This document shows, piece after piece, positions 2,796-24,706 of a stretch of DNA of 64,000 nucleotides; within the stretch, counting starts at the first letter, position 1, and the number at the start of each line of letters is the position of its first letter. The stretch lies in the NCBI GenBank assembly GCA_964517865.1, contig CAZFDW010000001.1, positions 82-64,081 on the forward strand. The letters are read 5' to 3'. Origin of the DNA: an uncultured Chitinophaga sp. Its GTDB lineage: Bacteria > Planctomycetota > Planctomycetia > Planctomycetales > Planctomycetaceae. The notes beneath the pieces were generated by a model. That model saw only the letters and a list, made by a program, of their open reading frames with translations. It did no database searches and was not told where the DNA came from. Made by a program: the position numbers and the translations under genes.

Positions 2796-4358
2796 ATGAG
2801 TTATCTGTTTCTCTCAGGTTCTACAGGGCTCCTTGGAGCTTACTTACTTCGCGATTTAATGCGATCCAGGGTCAATCTGGCCGTGTTGACGAGGTCAACA
2901 CGCATGGAGTCCGCTCAACAGCGCATGGAGTCCCTGATCGGACGTTGGGAGAAGGAAGCTGGATATGCTTTACCCCGTCCGGTCATTCTTGAGGGTGATT
3001 TGAAACGTGCCGACCTTGGCCTGTCCGCCCGAGATACAGAATGGGTGCAGACACATTGTCATGCGTTTATGAACAACGCTGCGAGCCTGACTTTTTACGG
3101 CAACGGGCGGGACGAAGAGCCTTACCTTTCGAATCTGAATGGGACTCGAAACGTCCTGGAATTCTGCAGTAAGACTGATATACGTGAATTCCACCACGTT
3201 TCAACAGCCTATGTCTGCGGCACCCGTCGCGGTCGAATCCTCGAGTCAGAGCTCGACGTCGGGCAGGAGCACGGCAACGACTATGAAATCAGTAAATTTG
3301 AATCCGAGAAACTGGTTCGTGCGGCAGATTTCCTGACCGACCTGACGGTCTATCGTCCCGGCATTATTGTGGGCGATGCAAAGACTGGATTCACGACGAC
3401 GTTTCATGGTTTCTACGTTCCTCTGAAGCTTGTCTCAACGCTGATGGCCAGGACCGGGGCGGTGGGAGTAAGCCGGGATGAACTGGAAATTGGCGTTCGG
3501 ACGGCGGGTTCGCACCTGATGCGGCACGTACTCAACACAACCGGGCACGAAAAGAAGAATCTGGTGCCAGTGGACTGGGTCGCTGCGGTAATGAGTCACA
3601 TCTACTGTCAGTCCAGGCATCACGGCCAGACATATCATCTGACACCGAAGCAGTCCGTGCCTGTCGCGGTGATGCAGCAAGCCATAGAAGATTCTTTCAT
3701 CAAGTACACATCAATGACGAGCAAGGCTGCTCAGACATCAATCGATTTTGACAAATTCGGTGAGTACTTTTATGAGCAGATGCTGGTCTACCGTTCGTAT
3801 TGGGGGGACGATCCGGAATTTGATTGTGCTAACACGCTGGCCGCCGCGCCACATTTACCGTGCCCGGAAGTTGATGCCGAGTTGCTTCAGCGGCAGTGCA
3901 AATTTGCGATTGAATCGAATTTCGGATGGCCGAAGCCTCGAGCCGCAAAGTTGAATACGGATGTGGATTCCTGTCTGTTGCCAATGTTGAATGCCGAGCG
4001 AAATTCAGATGAGTCAGGATCTCACACAGCAGTTGTCGGTCTGAGTGTCAGTGGAAATGGTGGCGGTCAATGGCAACTCGGGATTCAGAACGGTCGTGTC
4101 GTCAACGCTGAAGTGGGAATCAGTGACAGCTGCACCGCGATTATTTATCTGAATACATCATGTTTTGCCGAATTGCTGTCCGGATTGAAAACTGTGGAAC
4201 AGGCGGTGCATCTTGGATCTGTTCACATCGAGGGAGCCGAGGCGCATATGTCTCAGATTCTGCACGGAATGCAGGACCTGATTTCCGGTAACAGACTCAG
4301 CCAGAGGGGTACGGCGGAGTCAGCTTGTTGCGGAGATCCTGTGAGTACGCAGGTTTGA
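2796..4358 (+). CDS. Thioester/fatty-acyl reductase (extended SDR, NAD_binding_4 type) fused to a C-terminal SCP2-like lipid-binding domain
   Basis: Rossmann motif LSGSTGLLGAYLL and catalytic Y-x3-K (NDYEISKFESEKLV). The C-terminal region at about 4020-4290 (VVGLSVSGNGGGQWQLGIQNGRV...FAELLSGLKTVEQAVHLGSVHIEGA) fits the SCP2 pattern. Confidence 0.8.
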   Translation: MSYLFLSGSTGLLGAYLLRDLMRSRVNLAVLTRSTRMESAQQRMESLIGRWEKEAGYALPRPVILEGDLKRADLGLSARDTEWVQTHCHAFMNNAASLTFYGNGRDEEPYLSNLNGTRNVLEFCSKTDIREFHHVSTAYVCGTRRGRILESELDVGQEHGNDYEISKFESEKLVRAADFLTDLTVYRPGIIVGDAKTGFTTTFHGFYVPLKLVSTLMARTGAVGVSRDELEIGVRTAGSHLMRHVLNTTGHEKKNLVPVDWVAAVMSHIYCQSRHHGQTYHLTPKQSVPVAVMQQAIEDSFIKYTSMTSKAAQTSIDFDKFGEYFYEQMLVYRSYWGDDPEFDCANTLAAAPHLPCPEVDAELLQRQCKFAIESNFGWPKPRAAKLNTDVDSCLLPMLNAERNSDESGSHTAVVGLSVSGNGGGQWQLGIQNGRVVNAEVGISDSCTAIIYLNTSCFAELLSGLKTVEQAVHLGSVHIEGAEAHMSQILHGMQDLISGNRLSQRGTAESACCGDPVSTQV

Positions 4359-4442: not shown

Positions 4443-5957
4443 GTGATCTCAGCATTTAAGAGTCAGAGCTCAGGTGCCGCTTTGTCGGGGGACAGCAGTG
4501 GTCAGCCTGAAATCGTCCATTTTGATGCAACGACGCGACGCAAAGAAAAGATGCGCCACCTGGCGGGCCAGGAACGGCCCGACAGCGTTGCAGTCGCTGC
4601 GAACGGTGGAAAGGAAGCGCTGCGTGCAGATTTGCGGACTGCCGTTCGGGCCACAGATCCAGAACTTAGTCGGCGGCAGGCCATGACCAGGGTCACTGAT
4701 CCCGCTGCCAGGTCGGCTGCGTCATCAGCACCGGTGCAGCGACAACCAGCCCCAGGCAACAATGGGATCGCACGGGCGGTGAATTCAAAACCGCCTCAGA
4801 CCATTGCGCCTGCGGCAGAAAAGCCTGAGGCAGAGACAATTTCTGCAGTGACTTCAGCATCGCCTGAAAAACTGAATATTGACATCTCTCAACTCGAAGC
4901 TGTTCTGGTCAACTTCGTCGTCGAGCAAACAGGTTATCCAGAGGAGATGGTTGAGCTGGACGCAGACCTTGAGGCTGATCTGGGTATCGACAGTATCAAA
5001 AAAGCACAGATGCTTGGCGAACTGGCCGAGCAGTTGAATGTGAAGATCAATATCAGCGAAGACATGTCGCTCGATGATTTTCCGACGCTGCGACACATCA
5101 CAGAATTTCTCAGGAAAGCCGCGAACGAAACGGACGCTTCGGCCGCGATCGAGAATACCGAAGTGGCCTCCTCGCCAGCATCGACAATTGCACCGGAGAC
5201 GCCGATTCGCACGACCACGACTACAACATCAAAACTTAACTCTCCCGATCTTCAGCATTTGCTGGTGAATTTTGTGGTAGAACAAACCGGCTATCCGCCC
5301 GAAATGGTGGAAATGGATGCCGACCTTGAGGCTGATCTTGGGATCGACAGTATTAAAAAGGCCCAGATGTTTGGTGAGCTGGCCGAACAACTGAATATTC
5401 AGATCAGAATCACGGAAGAGATGTCTCTGGATGACTTCCCGACTCTGCGTCACGTTCTCCAGGCCCTTGAATCCGCTGCGACTGACTCAGCGGCGGCAGA
5501 GCAGGTCGCGGTACCGCAAATTCCACTGTCGGCCAGGTCATTTTCGGCGGACTTAAAGCGTGAGGAACCACGACAAAACGTGCCTTCAGGTGCAACTCCT
5601 GTCGCGACCGTCACGGGCGCTGCCATGGCCGCACCGATTCGAGCTTCTGTTTCTGCTGCGACAGGACAGGATGTCAGTGATTCGACAAAGCCGTCGGCGT
5701 CCAGTCTGACGCGTGAAGAGCTGGAAGCATTCCTTGTAAACTTTGTCGTCGAACAAACCGGTTACCCGCAGGAAATGGTGGAACTGGATGCGGACCTTGA
5801 AGCTGATCTTGGAATCGACAGCATTAAGAAGGCTCAGCTGTTCGGCGAACTTGCTGAAAATCTGGACGTGCAGATTCAGATCACGGACGATATGTCACTC
5901 GACGACTATCGGACACTGCGGGATGTTCTGAACCTTCTCGCGCAGGAAAAGAATTAG
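4443..5957 (+). CDS. Stand-alone triple acyl carrier protein (three tandem PP-binding domains) with a ~145-aa low-complexity N-terminus
   Basis: GTG start preceded by the GGGGGAGGAG Shine-Dalgarno. Three near-identical modules each carry DADLEADLGIDSIKKAQ, separated by Ala/Pro/Thr-rich linkers. Confidence 0.85.
   Translation: MISAFKSQSSGAALSGDSSGQPEIVHFDATTRRKEKMRHLAGQERPDSVAVAANGGKEALRADLRTAVRATDPELSRRQAMTRVTDPAARSAASSAPVQRQPAPGNNGIARAVNSKPPQTIAPAAEKPEAETISAVTSASPEKLNIDISQLEAVLVNFVVEQTGYPEEMVELDADLEADLGIDSIKKAQMLGELAEQLNVKINISEDMSLDDFPTLRHITEFLRKAANETDASAAIENTEVASSPASTIAPETPIRTTTTTTSKLNSPDLQHLLVNFVVEQTGYPPEMVEMDADLEADLGIDSIKKAQMFGELAEQLNIQIRITEEMSLDDFPTLRHVLQALESAATDSAAAEQVAVPQIPLSARSFSADLKREEPRQNVPSGATPVATVTGAAMAAPIRASVSAATGQDVSDSTKPSASSLTREELEAFLVNFVVEQTGYPQEMVELDADLEADLGIDSIKKAQLFGELAENLDVQIQITDDMSLDDYRTLRDVLNLLAQEKN
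4872..5120 (+). other. ACP domain 1
   Basis: VNFVVEQTGYPEEMVELDADLEADLGIDSIKKAQMLGELAEQL. The attachment Ser codon AGT is at 4992-4994. Confidence 0.85.
5247..5470 (+). other. ACP domain 2
   Basis: VNFVVEQTGYPPEMVEMDADLEADLGIDSIKKAQMFGELAEQL. The Ser codon is at 5349-5351. Confidence 0.85.
5707..5945 (+). other. ACP domain 3
   Basis: VNFVVEQTGYPQEMVELDADLEADLGIDSIKKAQLFGELAENL. The Ser codon is at 5820-5822. Confidence 0.85.
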
Positions 5958-6102: not shown

Positions 6103-9100
6103 ATGAGTCGTTTCTCCGAAAAGCCAGTTGCCATTATCGGAATGGGTTGTCGCCTTCCGGGTGCAGACAATGTGGATGAGTTCTGGCAACTGCTGATCGA
6201 AGGCCGAAGTGCGTTGGGAGAACTGCCGCCGGATCGCATGGATCGCGAACTGCAGTACGCGCCTCAAAAGGGAATTCGTACGCGATCATATTCCTGCCTG
6301 GGAGGTGTGGCTCAGGAGCAGCAGTTTTCGCAGATCGATTGTCCGGTTTCTCAATCGCTCATCGACCAGTCTCATTCAGCACACATTACGCTGTGCACCG
6401 TCGCGGCATCGGCCTGCCGGGATGCAGGACTCAATCCCTATGCCTTGCCAAATCGGAATGTGGGGGTTTACGTTGGGCACACGCCACCCAGCGCCCACAT
6501 CGGGCAGGTTGTTTACGCCCGCATGATCGCGCAGACAGCGGAGTATCTCCGGGAGATTCGGGAGCTGGATCAGTTACCACCCGGTGAAAAGGATGCCATC
6601 ATTCGGGAGATCGTGCACTCTGTGCGCAAGGACTACAAGGCTGGAGATCCGCTGACAAGGATGCGATCCTATGCGAATCATGGCCCGGGTTTGATTTCGC
6701 AGGCGTTTGGCCTGGATGGACCTTCAATCGCTTTCGACGCAGCATGTGCTTCCTCGTTTCGAGCGCTGGGGCACGGCATTCGCGCTTTGCAGCGAGGTGC
6801 CGTTGACATGGCACTCATTGGCGGTGCATCGTATGTTCACGGCGACACACTCGTGGTTTTTTCACAGGCTCAGACTCTGAGTGCGGTTGGCTCAATGCCC
6901 TTCGACGAGAAGGCCGCAGGGTTAGTCGCTGCAGGCGGATACGTCGTGCTGGCGTTAAAAACACTGGAGCGGGCGATGGCCGACGGCGACAGCATTCAGG
7001 CGGTCATCTGCGGTCTGGGAGTGTCGTCGGACGGCAAAGGAAAAAGTCTGTGGGCACCCCGACAGGAGGGGCAGATTGAAGCCATCTCGCGAGCCTATGG
7101 TCACGGAATCGAATTTCGTGATCTGCAGTATCTGGAGATGCATGCCACCTCAACGCAGGTCGGCGACGCGACCGAATTGGCAGCCATGGCAAAGTCCGCT
7201 CATGGACAGTTTCCACCGCATACGAAGATTCCGATTGGCAGTGTGAAGGCGAATATTGGTCATACTCTCGAGACAGCAGGGATTGCCAGTCTGCTGAAGA
7301 CTGTGCTGGCGATGAAACACGGGAAAATCCCACCGCAGATCAATGTGCAGCAGCTCAACAGCACCGTGAATTGGGAGGAGCTCCCCTTCTTTGTTCCGAC
7401 ACAGGCGCTGGAATGGAAACGTCCTGCCCCGAACATTCCCCGCATGGCGGCCGTTAACGCATTCGGGATTGGCGGGTTGAACGTCCATATTGCCGTGCGT
7501 GAACATCTTCCCGTGGCAACTTCCACACATCCCGTCAGCTCGCCGCCAGTGAAGCAACTGATTGCCGCAACGGACGACAATCTGAGTGACGAAGGAGCAC
7601 TGGCGATCGTTGGAATGGGAGCAATCTATCCAGGCGCACGAACGATAGATCATTTATGGGACGTGTTTCGTGAAGGACGCGACCAAAAATCTGAAGTTGC
7701 TCCGCAACGCTGGAAAAAAAATCTGGCGTACGATGCTGCGTCGCATGAACTTTGGAAAGTACCGACCGCAACAGGCGGTTTCATCAATGACTATGAATAC
7801 GACTGGAAGCGTCACAAAGTTCCTCCAAAACAGATCGCCAGTGCCGACCCGTTGCAGTTCATGTTACTGGATGCTGCGGATCAGGCCCTGAAAGATTCCG
7901 GCTATGATGCTAAGCCATTCGATCGAAATCGGACCGGCGTCATTGTCGGGATTGTGTTCGGAGGCGAATTCGCCGATCAGCTGCAGGCCGGCCTGCGCTT
8001 AACGGATTTTCAGAAACGGTTGTCAGAGGCGCTGCAGAATCGCGGCGTGGCCACAGAAAAGATCAATCAGATCTGCGCAGAATATGAAAACATCCTGTTA
8101 GAGCACATGCCAGCGCTCATTGATGAAACCGGCAGCTTTACGGCCAGTACGCTGGCATCACGAATTACAAAGACGTTCAACCTGATGGGAGGAGCAGTCG
8201 CACTGGACGCTGGCGACTGCTCGTCCTTGTCCGCGATTGAGTGTTGTGCAGACGTCCTGCTGGCTGGCGACTGCGATATGATGATTTGTGCGTCCGGGCA
8301 GCGCGCGATGGGAATTCCCACATTCGAAGGCCTGAAGCAACACGAACTGCTGTCGGTCGGCGAACCGCACGCTCCATTTGATTCGCGCGCGACGGGATCT
8401 GTTCCTGGAGAAGGCGTCGGCGCGGTCATTCTGAAGCGTCTCGCTGATGCACAACGTGATGGAGACCGGATTCATGGCATCATTCGCGGACTTGGCGTCG
8501 CTCGTTCAGATTCACGACGTGAGGCGCTGCGTAATGCCTTGAGTCGCGGACTGCATTCTGCCGGACTGACCCCGCAGGATATTGCATTTATTGAAGCCGG
8601 TTCAAGCGGCGTACCCGATCGGGACAGAGATGAGATTCTGGCGATCGCTGACGTCTATGGAGCCGAATCCCGTCCGGAGCCGCTGCCCATCGGAAGCGTC
8701 GCCGGCCAGATGGGGAACATCGGCGGTGGCTCCGGGATGGCCTCACTCATCAAAGCCGTCTCGCAACTGAATCATGCCGAAATGTCCGCATCTGTGGGGC
8801 TTGAGTCACCGATTTCAGAACTGGGAGATAACGCAAAGATTGTGCGCCCGTGCAACGCACCCAGCCGAATTCCACCAGTGAATGTCAACGGAAGAATGTT
8901 TGCAGGCATCACTTCGTACGCAAATCATCATGTCGCATACCATTTGATTGTGGAAGGGGCGACACGTGTCCCGATGCCAGCTCCTTCGGTAAAGCGTCCG
9001 TCACTGATGGCCAGGCCCGCTGCTCAGCCGTGTGAACTTCGGTCGCCTGCGGTCTCGCCGGCCTCACCGCGTGTGTCGTCGGCATGGCAGCCTGAATCTT

Positions 9101-12100
9101 CGCGCTGGAGAATTGTCCGGTGGAGTGGGAATTCGCTTTCGGAGCTCCAGCAGCAAGCCACGGCTTCAGCAGTGAATCCGACATTTGCATTTGAGGCTGC
9201 CATCAACTCCTGTTACGACGTGAAACAGCGATATCGCCTTGCAATCGTGGCCGAGAATGCAGAAACGCTGAGCACAAAGCTTACGCTTGCCGCAAAGCAG
9301 CTGGCAAACTCAGGTGCTCAGGCCGTGCTGGCTGAGAAGGGGATTTTTGTCGGCGAAATCCCGGAAGTGAAGCCGCTGGTGGCTTTCCTGTTTCCGGGTC
9401 AGGGGTCTCAGTATGAAGGCATGCTGAAGTCACTGACGGATGAGTGTCCGGCAGCGGCAGCAACGTTGCGGGAAATCGACAGCATCCTGGCGCGACTTCA
9501 GTTGCCATCGTTCGCTGATTTGGCATGGAATGTGAGCAATGAACTGGGCGACGATGTCTGGAAAACACAGCTTTCGCTGCTGATCGCGGATACGATTGTC
9601 TATTCCGCTGTAATTTCTGCAGGAATACGCGCTGATCGTGTAGCAGGGCACAGCTTTGGCGAACTCGCCGCATTGGTTGCCGCTGGCAGCTGGACGTTTG
9701 AAGACGCACTTATTGCCACGAGTGGTCGCTGCGCTGCGATCAACGCCTGCAGAAATGCCAACGGTCTCCTCGTCTCGACTAACGCCGGAGCGTCAATCGC
9801 AGAGAACATCTGCAGCGAAAACTCGGGGCAGGTGTCAGTTTCTCACTTCAACGCGCCGGAGCAAACCGTCATCGGCGGTGAGGCGTCCGCGATTCAGCAG
9901 GTCGCGGAAGCACTGAAGGCACAGGGCTTCCTTGCGAAGATTCTCAACGTTCCGGCAGCATTCCACACGCCGTTGATGGAAGAAGTCAAAATCCCGTTTG
10001 GGCGATTTCTGCAGGACATTCCGCTGAGTCCGCCATCGATCCCGCTGTTGAGCAGCGTGACAAATCGCTACGTGGCAGATCCTGTGGACATTCGGGATAA
10101 CCTTGTCCTGCAAATGACCAGACCGGTCAACTATGTGGACCTCGCGACAAGATTGGCAGATGAAGGAATTGCCGCAATGGTCGAAGTCGGCCCGCGTCAG
10201 GTGCTGACCGGGCTGCATCGCCAGATTCTGAATGGCCGCACAATTGCGATTGTCGGCTGCGATCATCCCAAACGAAATGGAATGGAGCAACTGCTCTACG
10301 TCAGAGTCTGTCTGGAAGTTATTGGAGCCACTGATGTGTGGCCTGAAAAAACTCTTCCACAAATATTCGCCAACGCCGCACCTGCGATTGAGCTGCCTTT
10401 GAATGATCAGGCGGCAATGGGACAGACAGAGCCAGTCTCGGTGAACATTGATCGAAGCAATCCGGAGACAAGCCCTGCTGCGAGCGACAGGCAGATCGTT
10501 GATCACTTTGCACCGTCAGCAATGACGATGACCGGAACTTCTTTTGAGATGGGCCAACAACACGGTGTAGCCTATGCAAAATCGATTCGAACGGTGCTGC
10601 GTCGCTGTGCGGATCTTGCCGGATCGGCGTGGGATGAACTCGCCAGGATTGACGACGCTGTCGCTCAGGCGGAACAGTACTTTGGCGCATCAGGACTGGA
10701 GGAAATTCGCGGAATTGCTGACGGTGCGGGCGTTGCCGTTGGCGGCCTCATTGCACTCAACCTGAGGTTGTATCTCAACGCTTGTGCCGGAGGACTGCAT
10801 TTCGCTGTGTCCACTCAGGCGAATCCCGCTGGTGAAATGCTGCATGCGATGAATGAAGATCTGGCACGTGGCCTGAAGTTGAAAGATTGTCTTGTACGCA
10901 GCATTCAACTCCGGCGTCCTGTTACCGGAATTGCTCACATGACATTCGGTATCGCAGGACAAGTTGGAACTCTCAGCGGCATCAATGCGCATGGACTTGC
11001 TGTCAGCACGGCATCATTGGTGGATGTCGCACCGGAAAATATTCAGACGTCCGGACTACTCATTACCGTCGTCATCAGAAACATCCTTGAGCAGACAGCC
11101 GATCTGGATTCTGCTGTGGCCCTGCTGCGATCATCACGGCTCACCGGCGCCTGGACGTTGTGTCTCAGCCATCTGGCAACAGATCGAGTGTGTTTTGTCG
11201 AGTATGATGGCCAGGGAATGCGTGTTCAGCCACAATTGCAGCGGGCCATGGCTGCAAACCATCAGCAGTTAATGAACCACACCCGTCAATCATTTACGGA
11301 AAATGCACCTGCTCATTCAAGCAATCGATTGAATCGACTCCGGGAATTGCTGGACGCCACCACAGCGGTCGGAATGACTGTGGATAAAGCAAAGACAGTC
11401 CTGCGAGATCGCTTTGATCAGTCAGCGCCAAGAGAGGCCGAGTTACCAGGCCTGCATACCATTCAGCGGATCGATACGCAGATCAGCCTCGTGATGCAGC
11501 CTGCCAAGGCAGCTGTGTGGGTGACTGGTGGGCCGACTTCCAACGGCTTCCAGAATCAATTCACAAGGATCAGTCTGCAGAATCTGCTGCTTCAGTCTCC
11601 TGCTGAACCATTTGTTGTGCATGCACCATCAACACCCTCAGGAAAGAATCGTGCAGGTGTGAACAGTGAAATCCAACAAAAACAATTGTCGGAGGACTTT
11701 GCAAATGCAGCGGATCCTGTCCTGCCAGACGGAACAGTCGGTGTCTGCAGCCGATTTGTGATGCGAATGGTTCGGCAACCACTGGCGGCGGGCGAAAATA
11801 AGTCATTGGGGCCAGTCGGCAATGTCATCATTCTTGGACACAACAGGGCTGGTCAGGCATTGCATGCCAAACTCACTTCGCAGGGAGTCACAGCGTGTCT
11901 GCTGCCAGTGACTGAAGATCCGAGTGTCACAATCGCAGCCCTCGAAAATCTCTGGAAATCCGCCCCTGCTCCACATTTGTTCCTGATGACCGCCATGGAT
12001 GAACAGGCACAGACAGCGCTTGAGTCCGAAGTTTGGCGATCCCGTACGTCTCAGGGCGTAATGCTGCCGTATCTGGTTTGCCAGAGATGGTTTCAACTGA

Positions 12101-14211
12101 TGTCAGGAGCACGCCTTCTGAGTCAGGGATCATTGATTGCAGCCACATCATTGGGGGGTGACTTTGGATTCTCGGGCAACATTCGCGGGGTCGAAGGTGG
12201 TGCATTGACAGGGTTGGTCAAGGGCGTGCATCTGGAACTGGAGATGGGCCACCACGAAACACAATTTCATGCCAGAATTGTGGACAGTGCGAACTCCACA
12301 TCGCCGGAGGAACTCGCCCGATACCTTTGTCGGGAACTTGCCGTGCGTGATGACGAAATCGAAGTCGGCTACATGAATGGAATGCGGTATGTGGTGCGGC
12401 CGGTGGTTGAAACTGTCGGAAAATTAACGTCGAGGAAAATCTCTCCAGGTGCAAACGTCCTCATTACCGGCGGGGCTCGAGGAATCACGGCCGTTGTGGC
12501 GCGGGAACTTGGATTGCAGTTTGGCGCAAGACTGCAGTTGATCGGGTCATCACCGATTCCCGAAATTCCGGATGCGTTCCGTAACTCCTCCGAAGAACTG
12601 CGGCGCGAACTGAAAGCGATTGTCATGAAGGAGGCGCTGGCAGACCGCAGGAAGCCAATCGAGGCATGGGAACACTACGAGAAGGCGCTGGAACTTGACC
12701 GAACTCTCCGCGATTTCTCCGATGCCGGTATTCACGCCACATATCACGCCTGTGATATCAGCGATCGAGCCGCACTGTCGTGTCTGCTGGAGACCATCCG
12801 ATCCACTGACGGTCCGATCCAGGGCGTCATTCACGGCGCCGGTTTTGAACGGGCTACTCGATTCGACAAAAAGAAACCTGAACTTGTGGCGCGCACCGTA
12901 GCGGTTAAAGTTGATGGTGCCGCCAATCTGATGGCACTGACTCTCAATGATCCGGTGGAATTCTTTGCGGCATTCGGGTCTGTGAGTGGACGATTTGGCG
13001 GAGTCGGACAGACAGACTATTGTGTCGCCAATGATATGCTGGCCAAGTTAGTTGACTGGTATCGTCAGACACGTCCGGGAACAGTTGCCTCCACATTTCA
13101 TTGGCATGCGTGGGACGATGTGGGTATGGCTATGCGGCCTGAATCGAAGCATATCCGCAAAATGCATGACATTCGGTTCATGCCATCGCGTGAAGGAACA
13201 ATGCATCTGGTCGGAGAACTGCGAGCCGGCTTGCCGGAAGGTGAGATTCTGGTTACAGAACTGAAAACTTGTCGGGATCGATATACCCGCATCGCGCCAG
13301 CAACCGAAGGAGCGACATCAACGACGCCGGCAAAACTTCCGTTGATTGATGCGGTCATCTCCGAAATCCCTGGGAAAGAATTACTTGCGGAGTTGATACT
13401 CGATCCGTGCCAGGATGTATTCCTGAAACAGCACTTGTTCAAAGGCAAGCCATTGCTGCCTGTTGTGGTCGCAATCGAAGCACTTGTCGAAGCCGCAATT
13501 GAGCTCACTGGAAAATATGGCAAAGTTGCAGCTCTGCACAACATTGAGATTGTCAACGGTCTGCGATTCACCACAGACGAACCACAAACTGCACACGTGC
13601 GGGCAGTTGCTGATGGCGATCAGGTTCGCTGCGAATTGATGTGTGACTTCCGCAATCGTCGTGGCATTGTCCTTCAGCCCAACCGCCCCTATCTGCGAGC
13701 TGATGTTGTCTTTATGGAGACGCCCCCCAAACTGGCTTCCTGTACGACTCCATCGGTCTCAGAATGGCATGATGTCTGGTATCCGGAAGAAGACGTCGTC
13801 ATTTACCATGGACCGGTGTTCCGGAATCTGCGTCAGATCACCGTGGATGAACGCAGTGATGGCTGGGCGCGGCTGGTGGCTCCCTCACCGGACAACGTTG
13901 CCGGGGTTCGAGGCGGGGCGGGCTGGTGCGTGCCGTCAGCACTTCTGGATGGCTGCTTTTTCGCGTGTGGTGCTTTCCTTTGGTTTCTGCTCGAAGGTGT
14001 GGTTGCGATCCCGGCCGGGATCGGTGAAATCCGATTCGGTCGCCAGGCACGGGTTGGGGAGCAATGTCTGGCCCATATCCGATTTCGCGATCGCAAAGAT
14101 GACCAGGGGATATTTGACGTTGATTTGTATGGCGAAGACGGAGAGGCCATCCTGCAGGTAGAAGGATATCGAAACATGATTGTGGCGCAGGCGATTTCAA
14201 ATGTCCGTTGA
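6103..14211 (+). CDS. Iterative type I PKS / PUFA-synthase-like megasynthase: KS - CLF - AT - peptidase C45/AAT-like domain - KR - PS-type DH (no ACP)
   Basis: 2702-aa ORF with a GAGGAAA SD before the ATG. Domain motifs are listed in the sub-features. The stop overlaps the PPTase start. Confidence 0.9.
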   Translation: MSRFSEKPVAIIGMGCRLPGADNVDEFWQLLIEGRSALGELPPDRMDRELQYAPQKGIRTRSYSCLGGVAQEQQFSQIDCPVSQSLIDQSHSAHITLCTVAASACRDAGLNPYALPNRNVGVYVGHTPPSAHIGQVVYARMIAQTAEYLREIRELDQLPPGEKDAIIREIVHSVRKDYKAGDPLTRMRSYANHGPGLISQAFGLDGPSIAFDAACASSFRALGHGIRALQRGAVDMALIGGASYVHGDTLVVFSQAQTLSAVGSMPFDEKAAGLVAAGGYVVLALKTLERAMADGDSIQAVICGLGVSSDGKGKSLWAPRQEGQIEAISRAYGHGIEFRDLQYLEMHATSTQVGDATELAAMAKSAHGQFPPHTKIPIGSVKANIGHTLETAGIASLLKTVLAMKHGKIPPQINVQQLNSTVNWEELPFFVPTQALEWKRPAPNIPRMAAVNAFGIGGLNVHIAVREHLPVATSTHPVSSPPVKQLIAATDDNLSDEGALAIVGMGAIYPGARTIDHLWDVFREGRDQKSEVAPQRWKKNLAYDAASHELWKVPTATGGFINDYEYDWKRHKVPPKQIASADPLQFMLLDAADQALKDSGYDAKPFDRNRTGVIVGIVFGGEFADQLQAGLRLTDFQKRLSEALQNRGVATEKINQICAEYENILLEHMPALIDETGSFTASTLASRITKTFNLMGGAVALDAGDCSSLSAIECCADVLLAGDCDMMICASGQRAMGIPTFEGLKQHELLSVGEPHAPFDSRATGSVPGEGVGAVILKRLADAQRDGDRIHGIIRGLGVARSDSRREALRNALSRGLHSAGLTPQDIAFIEAGSSGVPDRDRDEILAIADVYGAESRPEPLPIGSVAGQMGNIGGGSGMASLIKAVSQLNHAEMSASVGLESPISELGDNAKIVRPCNAPSRIPPVNVNGRMFAGITSYANHHVAYHLIVEGATRVPMPAPSVKRPSLMARPAAQPCELRSPAVSPASPRVSSAWQPESSRWRIVRWSGNSLSELQQQATASAVNPTFAFEAAINSCYDVKQRYRLAIVAENAETLSTKLTLAAKQLANSGAQAVLAEKGIFVGEIPEVKPLVAFLFPGQGSQYEGMLKSLTDECPAAAATLREIDSILARLQLPSFADLAWNVSNELGDDVWKTQLSLLIADTIVYSAVISAGIRADRVAGHSFGELAALVAAGSWTFEDALIATSGRCAAINACRNANGLLVSTNAGASIAENICSENSGQVSVSHFNAPEQTVIGGEASAIQQVAEALKAQGFLAKILNVPAAFHTPLMEEVKIPFGRFLQDIPLSPPSIPLLSSVTNRYVADPVDIRDNLVLQMTRPVNYVDLATRLADEGIAAMVEVGPRQVLTGLHRQILNGRTIAIVGCDHPKRNGMEQLLYVRVCLEVIGATDVWPEKTLPQIFANAAPAIELPLNDQAAMGQTEPVSVNIDRSNPETSPAASDRQIVDHFAPSAMTMTGTSFEMGQQHGVAYAKSIRTVLRRCADLAGSAWDELARIDDAVAQAEQYFGASGLEEIRGIADGAGVAVGGLIALNLRLYLNACAGGLHFAVSTQANPAGEMLHAMNEDLARGLKLKDCLVRSIQLRRPVTGIAHMTFGIAGQVGTLSGINAHGLAVSTASLVDVAPENIQTSGLLITVVIRNILEQTADLDSAVALLRSSRLTGAWTLCLSHLATDRVCFVEYDGQGMRVQPQLQRAMAANHQQLMNHTRQSFTENAPAHSSNRLNRLRELLDATTAVGMTVDKAKTVLRDRFDQSAPREAELPGLHTIQRIDTQISLVMQPAKAAVWVTGGPTSNGFQNQFTRISLQNLLLQSPAEPFVVHAPSTPSGKNRAGVNSEIQQKQLSEDFANAADPVLPDGTVGVCSRFVMRMVRQPLAAGENKSLGPVGNVIILGHNRAGQALHAKLTSQGVTACLLPVTEDPSVTIAALENLWKSAPAPHLFLMTAMDEQAQTALESEVWRSRTSQGVMLPYLVCQRWFQLMSGARLLSQGSLIAATSLGGDFGFSGNIRGVEGGALTGLVKGVHLELEMGHHETQFHARIVDSANSTSPEELARYLCRELAVRDDEIEVGYMNGMRYVVRPVVETVGKLTSRKISPGANVLITGGARGITAVVARELGLQFGARLQLIGSSPIPEIPDAFRNSSEELRRELKAIVMKEALADRRKPIEAWEHYEKALELDRTLRDFSDAGIHATYHACDISDRAALSCLLETIRSTDGPIQGVIHGAGFERATRFDKKKPELVARTVAVKVDGAANLMALTLNDPVEFFAAFGSVSGRFGGVGQTDYCVANDMLAKLVDWYRQTRPGTVASTFHWHAWDDVGMAMRPESKHIRKMHDIRFMPSREGTMHLVGELRAGLPEGEILVTELKTCRDRYTRIAPATEGATSTTPAKLPLIDAVISEIPGKELLAELILDPCQDVFLKQHLFKGKPLLPVVVAIEALVEAAIELTGKYGKVAALHNIEIVNGLRFTTDEPQTAHVRAVADGDQVRCELMCDFRNRRGIVLQPNRPYLRADVVFMETPPKLASCTTPSVSEWHDVWYPEEDVVIYHGPVFRNLRQITVDERSDGWARLVAPSPDNVAGVRGGAGWCVPSALLDGCFFACGAFLWFLLEGVVAIPAGIGEIRFGRQARVGEQCLAHIRFRDRKDDQGIFDVDLYGEDGEAILQVEGYRNMIVAQAISNVR
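6124..7500 (+). other. Ketosynthase (KS) domain, catalytically intact
   Basis: VAIIGMGCRLPGA; active-site FDAACASSF (Cys codon 6745-6747); EMHATSTQVGD; GSVKANIGHTLETAG. Confidence 0.9.
7600..8958 (+). other. Chain-length-factor-like (KS-beta) domain
   Basis: Thiolase-fold paralog of the KS (LAIVGMGAIYPGA...). The Cys position reads ALDAGDCSS (Asp at the aligned Cys position). Both catalytic His motifs are replaced (IEAGSSGVPDRD; GSVAGQMGNIGGGSG). Confidence 0.8.
9379..10215 (+). other. Acyltransferase (malonyl-CoA:ACP type) domain
   Basis: FLFPGQGSQYEGM; GHSFGE (Ser codon 9652-9654); AFHTPLM. Confidence 0.9.
10500..11560 (+). other. Peptidase C45 / acyl-CoA:6-aminopenicillanic-acid acyltransferase (AAT)-like Ntn-hydrolase-fold domain embedded in the PKS
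   Basis: MTGTSFEMGQQHGVAYA...EEIRGIADGAGV...LNACAGGLHFAV...MLHAMNEDL...GIAGQVGTLSGINAHGLAVSTASL...VVIRNILEQTADLDSAVALL follows the C45/AAT family pattern. The candidate nucleophile Cys codon is at 10783-10785. Confidence 0.7.
11800..13150 (+). other. Ketoreductase (KR) domain including the N-terminal structural subdomain, catalytically intact
   Basis: VLITGGARGITAVVA Rossmann motif (about 12456-12490); GVIHGAGF; AVKVDGA (Lys); GSVSGRFGGVGQTDYCVAN (Tyr codon 13018-13020). Confidence 0.85.
13340..14208 (+). other. PKS-type (PS-DH, double hot-dog) dehydratase domain
   Basis: H-x3-G-x4-P motif HLFKGKPLLP (His codon 13432-13434); downstream ALLDGCFF motif. Confidence 0.8.
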
Positions 14212-14926
14212 GCAAACTGCCGTTCGATACGCATCATTCGAAGCGTTAAGGGCAACAGGTATCGACAATGCGTTGCCATGGCTGCGCGGTACAAATGAGC
14301 GTGCGGAACTGGAACGTCTGACTGCGGAATCACGCCAGCAGAACTGGAAGTGGGGCCGCATTCTCAGCAGGCAGCTTTTGCGGGATCACGGCGTGGTTCG
14401 CGAGTCTTCGAGCGAGCAGTTGGAAATCCTGTCCATCAACGCATTCGGGCAGAATGATCGCCCTGCTGTCTACATTGATGGAGTGCTGCAGGCCGTGTCG
14501 CTCTCAATTTCTCATTCTGACCGTGGCCTTCTGGTCGCGCTTAGCGCTGCGACGAGAGTTGGTGTTGATCTGGTAGACCTTGAACAGGAGCCGTTTGGTT
14601 CACTTTGGGTCTGGATGACGAATGCAGAGCGAGCCTGGATGAACCGAAACGATTTGCGGCAACAGGCCACGGTCTGGGCCGTGAAGGAGGCTGTGTATAA
14701 GGCACTGAACGAGGGTGAGTCATTCTCGCCGCTCAGTGTTGCGGTGGTGCGGGAAGTACACGGTCGATACTCGTGCTTTTACAAAGACAGGGATATGAGG
14801 TCGATTTGTCAAATACACATCCGTGAATTGGACAGCCACCTTGCCGCCGTCGTTGAATACGGAATTCCATTAGACAACGCAGATCGAGAGATGCGTCAGA
14901 AACTCGATGTCGATACTGCTGAGTGA
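14201..14926 (+). CDS. 4'-phosphopantetheinyl transferase (Sfp-type)
   Basis: RVGVDLVDLE and WAVKEAVYKAL motifs. ATG 14201 overlaps the PKS stop (14209-14211) by 11 nt. The ORF track begins at an in-frame TTG at 14180. Confidence 0.8.
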   Translation: MSVEQTAVRYASFEALRATGIDNALPWLRGTNERAELERLTAESRQQNWKWGRILSRQLLRDHGVVRESSSEQLEILSINAFGQNDRPAVYIDGVLQAVSLSISHSDRGLLVALSAATRVGVDLVDLEQEPFGSLWVWMTNAERAWMNRNDLRQQATVWAVKEAVYKALNEGESFSPLSVAVVREVHGRYSCFYKDRDMRSICQIHIRELDSHLAAVVEYGIPLDNADREMRQKLDVDTAE

Positions 14927-14989
14927 ACGGCGAATTGATGTGGACGCCGTTGTTTCCTGTCCTCAAACAAAGATTTGATAAAAACGCCG

Positions 14990-15940
14990 ATGAGTTTGCT
15001 GGAAGTCAATCGATTAAAGAAGTCCTTTGGCACGCATCTGGCGGTCGATGAAGTCAGCTTCACTGTCGGAAATGGCGAAATTCTCGGACTGCTGGGGCCG
15101 AACGGTGCCGGAAAGTCCACGACGATCATGATGCTGGCCGGACTCATTGAACCCGATTCAGGCAACATTGTGCTGGACGGTCACACACTGAGTCATTCGG
15201 ATCGGAAGTCGCGTCAGCAAATGGGAATTGTTCCTCAGGATCTGGCCATCTACCCCAATCTGACGGCCCGTGAAAACCTTCGTTTTTTTGGCGGACTCTA
15301 TGGACTCACCGGCTCTGACCTGCGAAGCCGCATTACCGAAGTGTTGTCACAAACAGGCCTGGCAGATCGGCAGAACGACCTGACGTGTGAATATTCCGGC
15401 GGCATGAAACGCAGGTTGAATTTCGGCGTCGCATTGTTACACCGTCCCCGACTGTTGATTCTGGATGAGCCAACGGTCGGTGTCGATCCGCAATCACGGG
15501 CGCATCTGCTGGATTGTGTGAGGCAACTTGCCAGCGGGGGAATGTCCGTCATCTACTGCAGCCACTACATGGAAGAAGTTCAGGAATTATGTGATCGCGT
15601 TGCCATTGTGGATCGTGGTCAGTTGCTGGCATGTGATCGCATTGATCGACTGCTTGGGGAACTGGGCTCGACGCTGCGGCTACATCTGGTTGATGCCTCC
15701 GGAGAACTGCGTGCCAGCCTGACAGGCATTCCGGGAGTCACTTTTCAGCAGTGCAAGGATCGCATAATTGCATCAATTGCGAGACGCAATCCGGATGAGA
15801 ATCAAACTCTGCTTAACACGCTGACAGCTGCATTGCAGGCTGTTAGGGACGCTGGCGGGCAACTGACGACTGTTGAGTCGGACGAACCAGACCTTGAACG
15901 ACTCTTCCTGCAAATGACCGGCACACGGCTGCGAGAATAA
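14990..15940 (+). CDS. ABC transporter ATP-binding protein (ABC-2/DrrA-like)
   Basis: Walker A GPNGAGKST, signature YSGGMKRRL, Walker B LLILDEPT. ATG at 14990; an in-frame TTG at 14975 is also possible. Confidence 0.9.
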   Translation: MSLLEVNRLKKSFGTHLAVDEVSFTVGNGEILGLLGPNGAGKSTTIMMLAGLIEPDSGNIVLDGHTLSHSDRKSRQQMGIVPQDLAIYPNLTARENLRFFGGLYGLTGSDLRSRITEVLSQTGLADRQNDLTCEYSGGMKRRLNFGVALLHRPRLLILDEPTVGVDPQSRAHLLDCVRQLASGGMSVIYCSHYMEEVQELCDRVAIVDRGQLLACDRIDRLLGELGSTLRLHLVDASGELRASLTGIPGVTFQQCKDRIIASIARRNPDENQTLLNTLTAALQAVRDAGGQLTTVESDEPDLERLFLQMTGTRLRE

Positions 15941-15942
15941 CG

Positions 15943-17226
15943 ATGCGATTCTGGAACATTGTACAAAAGGATGTCATCCTGCTGGTTCGTGACAGCCGCG
16001 CGCTGTTCGTCCTGGTCATATTTCCGCTCGTGTTCATCACGATCATCGGCTTGACGACCGGTAAGCTGCTGGGGTGGAAGAATGAGAATCAAATTTTGAA
16101 AATCGGTGTCATCGACAGGACGAATTACGCCGCATTGGAGGACGAAACCGATCGTCACCGGGCGCGCAACATGGCCATGAAGATGGTAAACGGAGTCCGC
16201 CGTGGAAAAAACCAGCGCGGCGAAATGCTCGATTCCAACTGTAAATTTCAGGAGTCACTGGAGAACGGCAGTCTGGATGCAGTGCTGGAGATCGGACCGG
16301 AGTTCTACGGTATTTATCAGACGCTGGAACCTGAAGATGCATCTTCCAGTGGTTCCGGAGTTCTGACGAAGGGACTTTTCGGCCTGGGAATGACATTACA
16401 TTCAAATCTGCCAGAGACTTCCGGCACACGTTCGATCATTGAACAGTTATTATTTGATCAGGCAATCAAAACCGTGTTGCCTTATGTGTTGTGTGACAAG
16501 TTTCACACGTCGAACGTGATGGTGAATGTCCAGATTCAGCGAAAACTGAATTGCCAGCAGTTGCGAACGGAAGTCGTAGAACTCCTTCCTCCCTCGGAAG
16601 AAACTGCTGATTCCTCCGGTGGCGACGACATGCTGTACACCGTTCTGATTCCTTCCTACACCGTGATGTTTGTGTTTTTCCTGATCAACATCATGGCACG
16701 TTCGTTCTTACAGGAGCGCGACCTCGGCACACTGCGCAGACTGCGATTTGCACCGATTTCCGATCCCGGACTTGTCGCCGGAAAAACTCTCCCCTTCCTG
16801 TTTATTTCCCTTGTCCAGACTGGACTGTTGTTTGTGAGCGGGAAGTTGCTTTTTGGAATGATCTGGGGGCCTGCGCCCTGGATGCTGATTCCTGTTATCT
16901 GTGCCACATCGCTGTCTGCAACTTCTCTGGGACTGCTTGTCGCTACGATAGTTCGCAGTGACTCGCAGGTCTCGGCCTACGCGAACATCATTGTTATTTC
17001 GATGGCAGGGTTTAGTGGTTGCTTCATGCCGCGTGTCTGGTTACCCGGGCCCATGCAGACCGGAAGTTTGATTTTTCCGCATGCGTGGGCGCTGATGGCG
17101 TATGAACAGTTGCTGGTCAAAAGAGTTCCTGATCTTGGTCTTGTATGGCAGTACTGCGGCGTACTTTTGCTCTTCTCTGCTGTCTGCTTTGTGGCCGGGT
17201 GCTGGCGGTTTCGGCATAATGACTAA
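15943..17226 (+). CDS. ABC-2 type transporter permease
   Basis: Starts 2 nt after the ATPase stop. One N-terminal TM, a large loop and a C-terminal cluster of TM helices are typical of ABC-2 permeases. Confidence 0.8.
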   Translation: MRFWNIVQKDVILLVRDSRALFVLVIFPLVFITIIGLTTGKLLGWKNENQILKIGVIDRTNYAALEDETDRHRARNMAMKMVNGVRRGKNQRGEMLDSNCKFQESLENGSLDAVLEIGPEFYGIYQTLEPEDASSSGSGVLTKGLFGLGMTLHSNLPETSGTRSIIEQLLFDQAIKTVLPYVLCDKFHTSNVMVNVQIQRKLNCQQLRTEVVELLPPSEETADSSGGDDMLYTVLIPSYTVMFVFFLINIMARSFLQERDLGTLRRLRFAPISDPGLVAGKTLPFLFISLVQTGLLFVSGKLLFGMIWGPAPWMLIPVICATSLSATSLGLLVATIVRSDSQVSAYANIIVISMAGFSGCFMPRVWLPGPMQTGSLIFPHAWALMAYEQLLVKRVPDLGLVWQYCGVLLLFSAVCFVAGCWRFRHND

Positions 17227-17294: not shown

Positions 17295-20200
17295 CTACTG
17301 GCGAGGCGGGTTCAAGGTGGTAGCATGGAATCCCTGTGTCCAAAGAATGGCGGTCCCATCTTCTGCCAGAAGCCAGATATCCCAGGTGAGTCGGCGACCA
17401 TTGCGGCCGCGAAAAATGACTCTGGCCAGACATTTCTCACCGGCGGCCGGCAATCGACCAAAGTCAATCTGGTCGATCACATGTGGCAACTGTCGCGTTC
17501 CCAGGTTGTGCGTGGCGAACAGGTCGCACAAAAACAGACAGCCATCCAGCAACGCAGCCGGGGTGTGCCAGCGTGATCCGGGCCGTGAACCTCCCAATTC
17601 AGAAACTGGCGGGGCGATCATCCGCCCCCAGGAACCGTGCGCGTCGTGGTGGACAGATTTCAGAGTTCTCAGTTGTGGACCGTAAAACACAGTGCCACTT
17701 TCCGCAGCTCCCATGTCATGCCAGTCATTCGGATACGGTACCGCTGTCCAGGCATTCGACTCTGGCGGAGTACCGATATCCGGGGGCAAAATCTGCTGTG
17801 GATCATCCGCCATATTCAGTATGCAGGTTTGATACAAACGGAATGGATCGATCAGCAGACCCTGCTTCTCAAAGAAGTCTCCCGTCAGCTGACACGTCAA
17901 TTCCTGTTGAGTGCCGGTAAGTAGTATCCGCGCATGATGAAGGCGAGGGCTGGCCATGCGAAATCCGTTCTGGATTTGCAGATTGCGGAGCCGGCTGACG
18001 AACCGGCCGCCGCTCCAGATGAACGCAGCCTGCACACAGGTTTCAATGCCAACGACGGCTGGCAACAGCGGAACTCCGTCGTTCAGATGTCCATTGAGAA
18101 ACGGATCGGTATCCGGGGAAAATCGAATTTCAGCAATGCCCTGCTGTCCGATTCCCGAAAAAATATGATCGATTAATGGGGATTCGGAGATCAGATCCGT
18201 CAACTTCTCTCGCTGATGACATTCGATTTCGGAGGGCATCAGCCTGTTCAGAGCATCGCTGGAACTGATGTCCGGCCAGATCAGAATCTCCGTGTCGGCG
18301 GAGTCGGTGCTCAATTCTGCAATGACATGTGCAGTCGCTTCGTCCATCGCTGTCAAATGTTCACGCGCGCCAGCATCGGTATCCTGATTCACTTCACTGG
18401 TGATGACATCATTTTCAGCCCATGCCGGGCACAGGATTGTGACGGCACGGAATCCGTCCCGTCGTTCTGCCGCCACGCGCTGCAAAATCAGAGTCAGCAT
18501 TTCGTCGCCGAGCGCGAGTGCAGTCTGCAGTGCCGAACCAAACCTTCCCGCCGCCGAGGAAGTACAGATCAAATGGGAAAGTGGATCGCTGGCGGTCAGT
18601 TTCAGGAGGGCATCGGTGCATTCAACCCTGAGTCGCAACTGGTCTGCGACGTTCAGGGGATCAGTCTTCAAAAACTGTCCCGCCAGTGTCAGTTCCGCCC
18701 CGTGAAGAATGCCCTCAATTTTAACGTCCTGCCGACGTATCGCTGTCAGTACTTTTTCCAGTTGAGTCCTGTCACAGAGATCACACTGGTGGCAGGTATA
18801 CTGAATCCCGGCGTTGGTCAGAGCGACGAGTGTCCTGTCCAGAGGCAGATCTGCATCAATCAAGTGCAGTCGTAACCCATGCTGTCGCCCCAACTGCAGA
18901 GCCAGAGATGCGATATGACTACGACACACGCCCGTGACAATCCATGTTGTGCCACGACGAATGTTCCGCTGCGGAAGCTCTGAGACCGGCTGGAAAGTCG
19001 GTCTGGTCGTATATCTTTTCCCACGAACCGATGCCGTCTCGATGATGGTGGTATCGGTTGCCAGTTCGCGGCAAACGGCGGCAGCGATCATTTTCGGCGG
19101 TTCATTTTCTGGTGCATCGATCACTCGGATTCGCAGCACACCTTCGGTTTCGCGGCTAAGTGACTTCAACAACCCCGCCATTCCACCACGATACGGTGAC
19201 GCAAACAGACCACGGCATCCCCCGTCTCCCCCGAATAAACTGACTGCTGCAAGAGACGCCCGGTGGATGAGTTTTGCGTCACAAACATGCTGATACCATC
19301 GCTGGCAGATGCAAAATCCTGTGACGGCTGCATCAGAGGGTCTGCTCCCCGGTGAACTCAGGTCACTGTTCTCGCTGTTGCCTTCATCGCAGCCGGTCAT
19401 CAGGAACAAATGTGGCGTTGGAGCATGTGCCCAGATGTCGTCTAACTCCTGCAGTAAACTATCGGTGCTGGCGAAGTCTGTCAGCTGATGGACGGAAATC
19501 TGCAGGCTCTCCAATTTTTCTTTCAGCGCTGCAGCTGCCGCGTTATGGCCAAGGATCAGTGCCGCACCGGAAAACACACTGACCGGTGAAACAGACGTCG
19601 GTGATGTTGCTTCCACGGTGCGAAAGACGTACCTCCGCATCGTCCGCGATTGTGAAGAATTCGTCGATGCATCGTGCGGTTTAACAGCCGAGTGTGGCCC
19701 AACGGCATCTGCAGATTCAGCTGCAGGCTGCAGCATGGATGCTGATGGAGTCCGCATCGTCCATTCAATCAACTGTTCCAGGCACGCGAAGTCTGTTGGA
19801 GCATTTTCCTTTCGTGTGGGCAGATCGGGGAATTCCCGGAACATTAAGTCCAAAAGGTATTGCCGGGCAGCTTTATTGAGGCCGAGATCACCTCTGAGGT
19901 CTGAGTTCAGCAGGATCAGGTCTGATGGATAGCCGGTCAGATCGATCACCGCCTGGACCAACCGCTGGACCAGCCGACGCCGATCCGGAGACTTCAACGT
20001 CGGCCCAACGCTGCTGGCTGCGTTTTCTGCTGGAGCCGCCAGATCCATGGTCATGGCGGGTGCTGCCACAGGAACGATGCTCTGGTCAGAGTCGCTCCGT
20101 GGTGGTGTGCCTGGCGATGTGTGAGTCTGTGACTTTAATGGTATCGACAATTCCCAGGCAATGTCAGCTGGCAATACAGTTCTGATTGTATCGCCTGCAC

Positions 20201-24136: not shown

Positions 24137-24706
24137 TTAACTGCCGGAAATCAACTGAGTCAGGAACAACTCGGGATTATCGACGGGTTTTGGTTTGTCG
24201 CCATTCCATTCGACAAGCCCTGTTTGCTCGATCACAAACATTGCTGGCCGAATGACTGCGACAGCACCCTTTGAAGGAAGTATCGCCGTGCCCCACCTGA
24301 CCGAACTGGAATCCGGGTATCCGGAACGGGTGTCGTGCAACACAGGGAACGGGAAATTCTCAGTCTGCAATTTGAATTCAGGAGTCAGCGGCGTCGAAAT
24401 CGCGATGAGTTTGATACCCGTTCGTTTGATCGCCTCAGCAAACTCCCGAATTTGCCGCATCAGGGGATCACCGTCGAGTCCTTGACGGGCGTCGAAGAAA
24501 ACCAGCACAATTCGATGCCGATGCAGATAGCTCTGCAAGTTCGCCTGTCGGCCATTTTGATCGAGCAATTGAAATGTTGGTGCGGGCCGTTCATCGACAA
24601 ATGTCGCCGTGACCTTCACCGCATCACGAGGTGTCAGGATTCTCCAGCACGTCGCTGTGGCGACTAACAGAAGAACGCTGCCGAAAATTTTTTCACGAAG
24701 TTTCAT
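24137..24706 (-). CDS. Membrane-anchored thioredoxin-fold (AhpC/TSA-like) protein lacking the peroxidatic cysteine
   Basis: N-terminal TM. FQLLDQNGRQANLQSYLHRHRIVLVFFDA...IAIS...FPFPVLHD...MFVIEQTGLV follows the AhpC/TSA layout, but the T-P-x-C position reads ARQGLDGDP. Confidence 0.55.
   Translation of the reverse strand: MKLREKIFGSVLLLVATATCWRILTPRDAVKVTATFVDERPAPTFQLLDQNGRQANLQSYLHRHRIVLVFFDARQGLDGDPLMRQIREFAEAIKRTGIKLIAISTPLTPEFKLQTENFPFPVLHDTRSGYPDSSSVRWGTAILPSKGAVAVIRPAMFVIEQTGLVEWNGDKPKPVDNPELFLTQLISGS

Follow-up and report, generated by a model that had tools for sequence, protein, structure and literature searches.

A domain of the C45 family of N-terminal nucleophile (Ntn) hydrolases, from which the catalytic cysteine has been lost, lies within a 2,702-residue megasynthase of a planctomycete. 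The megasynthase is encoded in the window, a stretch of 64,000 nucleotides (positions 82 to 64,081, forward strand) of contig CAZFDW010000001.1 in assembly GCA_964517865.1, deposited as an uncultured Chitinophaga sp. and placed by GTDB in the Planctomycetaceae. The outcome of its analysis is two-fold. The first part is a large family of megasynthases, so far undescribed, in which a probably catalytic C45 domain is embedded; the second is a lineage within this family, to which the window belongs, in which the domain lacks its nucleophile, appears to be a pseudo-enzyme and is found alongside a thioester reductase (TR). On balance, we favour the view that the C45 domain in the window is a non-cleaving, non-canonical pseudo-enzyme kept for binding or scaffolding, and that release of the chain falls to the TR.

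The identity of the domain as a member of the C45 fold is established by profile and structure alike. The NCBIfam model NF040521 (C45_proenzyme, 'C45 family autoproteolytic acyltransferase/hydrolase') gives 140-144 bits (cut-off 85; E 5e-42), and the match spans profile positions 1-310 of 313, corresponding to residues 1477-1802 of the protein and to 10531-11508 of the window. The Pfam model PF03417 (AAT) is also matched above its threshold (43.7-47.9 bits, gathering 23.2). An AlphaFold2 model of the domain, built on 22 family sequences, is confident (pLDDT 86, pTM 0.89) and is predicted to adopt the alpha-beta-beta-alpha fold of Ntn hydrolases. In a Foldseek search of the PDB its best matches are the structures 2x1c, 2x1d and 2x1e of the isopenicillin-N acyltransferase (IAT) of Penicillium chrysogenum (E 2e-18, TM 0.72), followed by acid ceramidase and NAAA (TM about 0.69). 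An earlier note, made from the sequence alone, had described a C45-like insert between the acyltransferase (AT) and ketoreductase (KR) domains on the basis of six motif strings; all six are in frame in the translation of 10402-11700, and the hmmscan and Foldseek comparisons which it proposed bear the assignment out.

Compared directly in sequence, the region resembles the solved IAT only weakly (E about 1e-3, 21% identity), and it could be argued that the C45 match is spurious, or that the region is an ordinary linker between the AT or acyl carrier proteins (ACPs) and the KR of polyunsaturated fatty acid (PUFA) synthases. The probability of this is negligible, as the NF040521 score is far over the curated cut-off and the structural match to IAT has a TM of 0.72; on these grounds, and on that of the AlphaFold2 model, the reading was rejected. 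When the region was scanned alone, only NF040521 and AAT matched it, and TIGR02813, the PfaA model, found no match there; it is thus no ordinary PUFA-synthase linker, the outcome that the earlier note had named as fatal to its proposal. The domain is also missing from canonical architectures and from the paralogous synthase encoded further downstream. The latter absence, which the note had reported, is confirmed by a search of all six frames of the window with the family hidden Markov model (HMM), filters off, in which no second C45 copy was found.

IAT is cleaved between Gly102 and Cys103, and only after this cleavage does it become active (PMC2692852). In an alignment of 97 embedded C45 domains the corresponding columns hold Gly in 92 and then Cys in 83. 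In the window, the Gly-Cys pair characteristic of the C45 family is replaced by Gly1563-Gly1564. The family profile HMM places residues 101-DGCTT-105 of IAT exactly on the Gly-Cys column with high posterior probability; this settles the matter left by a direct phmmer comparison with the PDB, in which Cys103 was placed ambiguously, on L1565 or on A1568. There is no indel in the window between the near-invariant N1553 and the H/Q-F-A strand (H1566), and in the AlphaFold2 model the strand begins at G1563. The two gga codons are identical in an independent metagenome-assembled genome (MAG; locus L001), and GGA is two substitutions away from the cysteine codons TGY, so a sequencing error does not account for the glycine. 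As the nucleophile is missing, the domain is predicted not to process itself into alpha and beta chains.

Far from being unique, as the earlier note had treated it, the domain is conserved in a large family of megasynthases, which answers the note's suggestion that orthologues be searched for the same insert. An exhaustive HMMER search of 1.84 billion representatives returned 843 proteins at E<=1e-3, of which 101 were at E<=1e-30. When the window's own domains were mapped onto each of the best 150 of these 843, the C45 domain was found together with polyketide synthase (PKS) domains in 122, and 47 were complete proteins of the form KS-CLF-(AT)-(ACP0-4)-C45-KR(-KR)-DH(-DH), where KS, CLF and DH denote ketosynthase, chain-length factor and dehydratase. 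In these the position of the C45 domain is invariable, directly behind the ACPs or the AT and ahead of a pseudo-KR (psiKR). Typically, the architecture is KS-CLF-AT-(ACP)n-C45-KR-DH, with a phosphopantetheinyl transferase (PPTase) and a FabL-like enoyl reductase (ER) encoded adjacently. This cassette of megasynthase, PPTase and FabL-like ER recurs across 43 metagenome loci, in some of which a TR and a separate upstream ACP gene are also present. Outside the core cassette the neighbours are specific to sub-clades (GH3 amido synthetase, Rieske oxygenase, AMP-binding enzyme, FkbM methyltransferase). The window belongs to this family by the position of its C45 domain, between the AT and the psiKR-KR, and by its PPTase and FabL-like ER; it departs from it in the glycine at the nucleophile site, in its separate ACP gene and in the location of its ER beyond the paralogue.

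Among the named members are proteins of Planctopirus limnophila (ADG67503.1/WP_013109934.1), P. hydrillae, P. ephydatiae and Bremerella (WP_224438666.1), whose sole annotation is 'type I polyketide synthase'. No description of a C45, Ntn or IAT-like domain in a PKS, fatty acid synthase (FAS) or PUFA synthase was found in the open-access literature, an absence that is not proof; to this extent the earlier note's statement that it knew of none stands. Targeted reading of a 2026 overview of specialised-lipid synthases found no such domain described. In the survey by Shulse & Allen 2011, a P. limnophilus cluster of 'Type J' is given as KS-MAT-ACP3-KR, and no C45 domain is mentioned. ADG67503.1 is probably the 'Type J' pfaA homologue of that survey.

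Several members of the family invite separate comment. In the P0001 cluster, a 2,703-residue orthologue is in some assemblies called as two genes on the same contig, of 925 (P0159/P0160) and 1,778 residues (P0161/P0162); the split falls between CLF and AT, not inside the C45 domain, and could be a frameshift or real. Loci L036 (5505-13579) and L037 (1287-9361) each contain two overlapping open reading frames (ORFs), encoding KS-CLF-AT-ACP and C45-KR-DH, with the break just upstream of the C45 domain; these may be a natural two-protein version or the result of a frameshift. A 487-residue entry, P0182 (CAE7431835.1, 'mas, partial [Symbiodinium sp. CCMP2456]'), falls into a cluster at >=90% identity with the Bremerella megasynthase and is probably bacterial contamination of a dinoflagellate assembly. 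For the stand-alone C45 protein P0152, the sole neighbour shown is a TPR-protein.

The loss of the cysteine is a property of a lineage. In a 139-sequence alignment of the domain, which includes 118 Cys-type domains, 19 sequences have Gly at the nucleophile column. Fifteen of the 19 form a monophyletic clade in a neighbour-joining tree, comprising the window, L001-L005, L032, L038, P0001-3, P0017, P0018, P0032 and P0035; the other four are scattered. Divergence within this main Gly clade extends down to about 40-50% identity. In the sister group the nucleophile site is occupied by Gly, Ser or Thr. Two sequences, P0069 and P0091, carry Ser or Thr in place of Cys at this column and have also lost other conserved residues. 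Ser and Thr are alternative nucleophiles of Ntn enzymes.

Fifty-one columns are at least 85% conserved among the 118 Cys-type domains, and about 35 of these are kept by the 19 Gly-column sequences, with about 16 relaxed. Residues that are kept include the N-E-D motif, R1604, N1719-H1720, S1739, R1742, R1745, D1769, D1772, R1789, D1791 and S1795; those that are relaxed include P1588, H1654, H1738, T1783-N1785 and N1792. The main Gly clade also has residues of its own, namely W1510, R1555, L1558, H1566, T1636 and T1655. Comparison with L001, a Planctomycetaceae MAG which was the single locus yielded by a scan of genome contigs and was used for synteny and dN/dS, shows the same genes, with 97.6% protein identity across the ORF (96% in the contig scan). 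The C45 domain has a dN/dS ratio of 0.24, the ORF as a whole has one of 0.15, and the remaining domains range over 0.06-0.30. The evolutionary rate of C45 divided by that of KR, taken within the same proteins, is about 1.18 in the Gly clade and about 1.01 in the Cys clade. From these two measures it follows that the C45 domain of the window is modestly relaxed and not decaying. A TR and a separate tandem-ACP gene lie upstream in all four assessable Gly-type loci (window, L002, L004, L038), and by our own tally a TR is present in 3 of about 17 assessable Cys-type loci (L007, L014, L041).

Four readings of the window copy can be set against these data. The earlier note assigned the catalytic role to the codon at 10783-10785, which does encode a cysteine (tgt, Cys1561). 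The domain would then be an active C45 acyltransferase, self-cleavage at Cys1561 would split the synthase in two, and the new N-terminal cysteine would serve either for loading a starter or for transferring the chain to an amine or hydroxyl acceptor. The domain is a genuine C45 member, and a cysteine three residues upstream of the canonical site is common to the window, P0001, L001 and P0017; nevertheless, this reading is highly improbable. The column is variable (Gly in 18, Val in 16 and Ala in 10 of the 97 domains), it holds Gly in other members of the Gly clade (P0002, P0003, P0018, P0035, L004, L038), and the profile alignment sets Cys103 of IAT on Gly1564 without an indel. In the AlphaFold2 model, Cys1561 is predicted to lie in the loop ahead of the strand that has to begin with the nucleophile. 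Cys1561 was rejected as a shifted nucleophile for these reasons, and a search of the Gly clade for a newly fixed Cys, Ser or Thr found no clear candidate for a relocated one; T1636, where the Cys clade has Ser, and T1655 were all that it yielded. With Gly1564 at the nucleophile column, canonical self-cleavage and Cys-thioester transfer are not expected here, so the window copy should neither split the synthase nor load or off-load chains in the way that the note had envisaged; self-cleavage and canonical acyl transfer are both improbable in it. Both activities are possible in the roughly 85% of relatives in which Gly-Cys is present.

It has to be considered whether the Gly-type domain is still an enzyme of a non-canonical kind. 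It might be an uncleaved hydrolase or transferase in which Asn, His, Arg or Ser activates water or an acceptor against an ACP-bound thioester, or else it might act in editing or as a gate on chain length. Almost every other polar residue that is invariant in the family is kept, clade-specific residues have been newly fixed round the site (H1566, T1636, T1655) and purifying selection is evident; moreover, the Ser or Thr of P0069 and P0091 in the sister group indicates that the nucleophile site can change its chemistry. However, we know of no precedent for Ntn-type catalysis without the N-terminal nucleophile, and IAT variants at Cys103 are unprocessed (2x1c is described as the precursor form and IAT-C103S as an unprocessed preprotein). 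The relaxation of residues conserved in the Cys clade (P1588, H1654, H1738, T1783, N1785, N1792) and the raised rate relative to KR (about 1.2, vs about 1.0 in the Cys clade) also speak against it, and we regard this reading as unlikely. Less likely again is a functionless, decaying relic, tolerated as a long linker after the TR took over release. The loss of the catalytic cysteine, the relaxation of about 16 of the 51 conserved columns and the somewhat raised rate relative to KR would fit a relic, as would the lack of a fixed contact with KR in the AlphaFold2 model. These observations are outweighed by the dN/dS of 0.24, the confidently predicted fold and the persistence of the Gly clade down to 40-50% identity with its own invariant residues and with no deletions or disruption of the frame.

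The pseudo-enzyme reading, which remains the one we favour, can be put as a sequence of events. The C45 domain would have been inherited from the megasynthase family in its usual position, between the ACPs or AT and the KR, and the change from Cys to Gly would have taken place in the monophyletic sub-family that includes the window. The Gly copy could neither undergo the N-to-S acyl shift by which C45 proenzymes are cleaved nor form an acyl-thioester on Cys, and the synthase would stay a single chain. Held under purifying selection, the domain may now serve to hand the acyl chain over, or to bind either this chain or the tandem-ACP protein encoded separately, and the upstream TR would release the chain as an aldehyde or alcohol. 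Speculatively, the adjacent ABC transporter could be the export route.

Several points weigh against this account. The Gly loci belong to one clade, so their association with the TR amounts to a single evolutionary event, and since a TR is also found in three Cys-type loci, its presence does not make C45 chemistry redundant. A two-domain AlphaFold2 model of C45 and KR has confident domains joined by a disordered linker (pTM 0.60); a fixed C45-KR scaffold is thus unsupported, and a rigid scaffolding role is favoured neither way. The retention of nearly all other conserved polar residues (N-E-D, N-H, H-S, R1742, R1745, D1769, D1772, R1789, D1791, S1795) could mean residual or altered catalysis in place of pure binding.

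For the Cys-type relatives, a role as an off-loading or editing acyltransferase/hydrolase is plausible. The domain is sited right after the ACPs, it has the complete catalytic signature of IAT, there is no other release enzyme, and there is precedent for C45 enzymes acting on carrier proteins (AzsT, DobA). A Pfam search of three full-length Cys-type members found no thioesterase, and in most of the family the C45 domain is the only candidate for acyl off-loading. If such domains mature as IAT does, the synthase would be split into two associated chains. Cleavage at Gly-Cys would give [KS-CLF-AT-ACPn-C45alpha] and [C45beta-KR-DH], held together non-covalently, and the cysteine thus exposed would receive the finished chain from the adjacent ACP, with water, an amine or a hydroxyl as the final acceptor. 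It may be, and we advance this tentatively as something we think somewhat doubtful, that the Cys-type domain is a new class of self-cleaving PKS/FAS release module and the Gly-type domain of the window the first such module to have turned pseudo-enzyme after takeover by a TR. In Cys-type loci L008-L011, L013 and L019, a GH3-family acyl-acid amido synthetase gene lies downstream of the ER (e.g. L009, 16127-17935), which hints that in this sub-clade the product is released as the free acid and then conjugated to an amine.

The ORF that contains the domain is best explained as encoding, in a bacterium of the Planctomycetaceae, an iterative 'secondary lipid' megasynthase that resembles PUFA synthases. 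The fusion of C45 to the synthase in a single ORF is established: Pfam finds, in order along the ORF, KS, a second KS, AT, AAT/PF03417 (1583-1776), KR and PS-DH. The second KS is CLF-like because both catalytic histidines are lost. It retains a cysteine at the active-site position in DAGDCSS; classical CLFs have this cysteine replaced. All the parts of a PUFA-synthase (Pfa) type system are present in the cluster, namely the KS-CLF pair, malonyl-AT, tandem ACPs, KR, PKS-type DH and a dedicated PPTase. The ORF scores 661 bits with TIGR02813 (PfaA) against a cut-off of 1010 and so is not a PfaA equivalent; Pfam gives only dehydratases of the PS-DH/PKS_DH_N type, with no FabA-type DH/isomerase domains of PfaC; and the ER is a FabL-like short-chain dehydrogenase/reductase (SDR), not of PfaD type. 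The synthase is a relative of canonical omega-3 PUFA synthases and not itself one. Its domains and neighbours are listed in Table 1.

Table 1. Features of the megasynthase locus, in window coordinates
Feature	Position	Strand	Residues	Remarks
Thioester reductase (TR)	2796..4358	+		NAD_binding_4 / TIGR01746-like; likely chain-release enzyme
Separate carrier protein, three tandem ACPs	4443..5957	+		PfaA-type repeats, match ACP region of TIGR02813
Megasynthase ORF	6103..14211	+	2,702 aa	KS-CLF-AT-C45-psiKR/KR-DH
KS domain	6103..7512	+	1-470	Cys215 in DAACASS; both His present
CLF-like second KS	7585..8892	+	495-930	Cys in DAGDCSS; both catalytic His absent
Malonyl-type AT	9358..10338	+	1086-1412	FabD model 178 bits; Pfam AT 1095-1408
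C45 / IAT-like Ntn-hydrolase-fold domain	10531..11508	+	1477-1802	
Cys1561 (tgt)	10783..10785	+	1561	Variable loop column, three residues before strand
Gly1563-Gly1564 (gga gga)	10789..10794	+	1563-1564	At site of IAT Gly102-Cys103; nucleophile missing
psiKR + KR	11743..13287	+	1881-2395	Pfam KR 2118-2339
PKS-type DH	13300..14208	+	2400-2702	Pfam PS-DH
PPTase	14180..14926	+		
ABC transporter	14975..17226	+		ATPase 14975-15940; ABC-2 permease 15943-17226
Paralogous synthase	17295..22439	-	1,714 aa	KS, truncated CLF, ACP-like segment without Ser, psiKR/KR, DH; without AT and C45
FabL-like enoyl-ACP reductase (trans ER)	22478..23242	-		Kept beside family members

In the paralogue, the ACP-like segment (residues 814-903) has DLGLNKAAR at its phosphopantetheine site, with no serine, and the CLF is about 250 residues long. 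The paralogue, which has no AT, probably relies on the main synthase for this activity and on the separate ACP protein as its carrier. Upstream of the TR lies a CTP_transf_1 gene for a CdsA-like cytidylyltransferase (1512-2342, minus strand), which is also found in L038 (863-1630, minus strand), a Gly-type locus 48% identical; it may be part of the lipid pathway. Just past the cluster, both on the minus strand, are genes for a second SDR (24693-25487) and for an efflux protein of the MatE type (25641-27050). The remainder of the window looks like ordinary planctomycete chromosome (DUF1501, sulfatase, sigma-54 activator), and Rfam has no matches in it.

Off-loading chemistry sets what an iterative lipid or polyketide synthase makes, and the solutions known are thioesterases, reductases, PfaB-type ATs and the myxobacterial AGPAT domain. 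If the catalytic role proposed for the Cys-type relatives is true, a C45 Ntn domain in more than 100 megasynthase clusters, including those of the cultivable Planctopirus and Bremerella, would be a new solution and maybe a self-splitting one. It has been passed over by present annotation ('type I polyketide synthase') and by the 2011 survey of secondary-lipid synthases. The lineage of the window is a natural 'nucleophile knock-out', and the contrast between Gly-type and Cys-type gives an experimental handle on the role of the domain. Were the pseudo-enzyme reading true, it would mean that megasynthases can retain a catalytic domain in the form of a pseudo-enzyme.

Among known systems, the nearest is IAT itself (PenDE of P. 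chrysogenum, MEROPS C45; 2X1C/2X1D/2X1E), which matches the same PF03417 and NF040521 profiles, has the same fold (TM 0.72) and has in common with the window domain the motifs GTPxExG, EE(I/L)RGIA, N-x-D, T-N-H and S..R..R. IAT, however, is a free-standing 40-kDa proenzyme with Gly102-Cys103, whereas the window domain is fused into a 2,702-residue synthase, has Gly-Gly and is about 21% identical. C45 enzymes of the azaserine, triacsin and diazo pathways (AzsT, Tri14 and DobA) remove succinyl from succinyl-HAA-CP (PMC10445470, PMC13061610). They provide a precedent for C45 chemistry on phosphopantetheine-bound substrates, but are discrete proteins outside the PKS polypeptide and hydrolyse an amide, not a thioester. 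Acid ceramidase and NAAA (TM about 0.69), Cys-Ntn hydrolases with long acyl chains as ligands, are lysosomal amidases of eukaryotes; they belong to another family and are 13-16% identical. In the myxobacterial Pfa3 system, an AGPAT domain is an embedded off-loading acyltransferase. The terminal AT of PUFA synthases, PfaB, also off-loads (PMC12895367). Conceptually, these two fill the same slot, that of an extra acyl-transfer module which sets how the chain leaves an iterative lipid megasynthase, but in fold they have no relation to C45 (AGPAT; alpha/beta-hydrolase-like AT), and neither belongs to the autoproteolytic Ntn enzymes. The embedded Cys-type C45 domains of Planctopirus and Bremerella, 33-49% identical to that of the window, have the same architecture, PPTase and FabL-like ER; they differ in that Gly-Cys is kept, the ACPs are usually fused before the C45 domain and a TR is mostly absent nearby.

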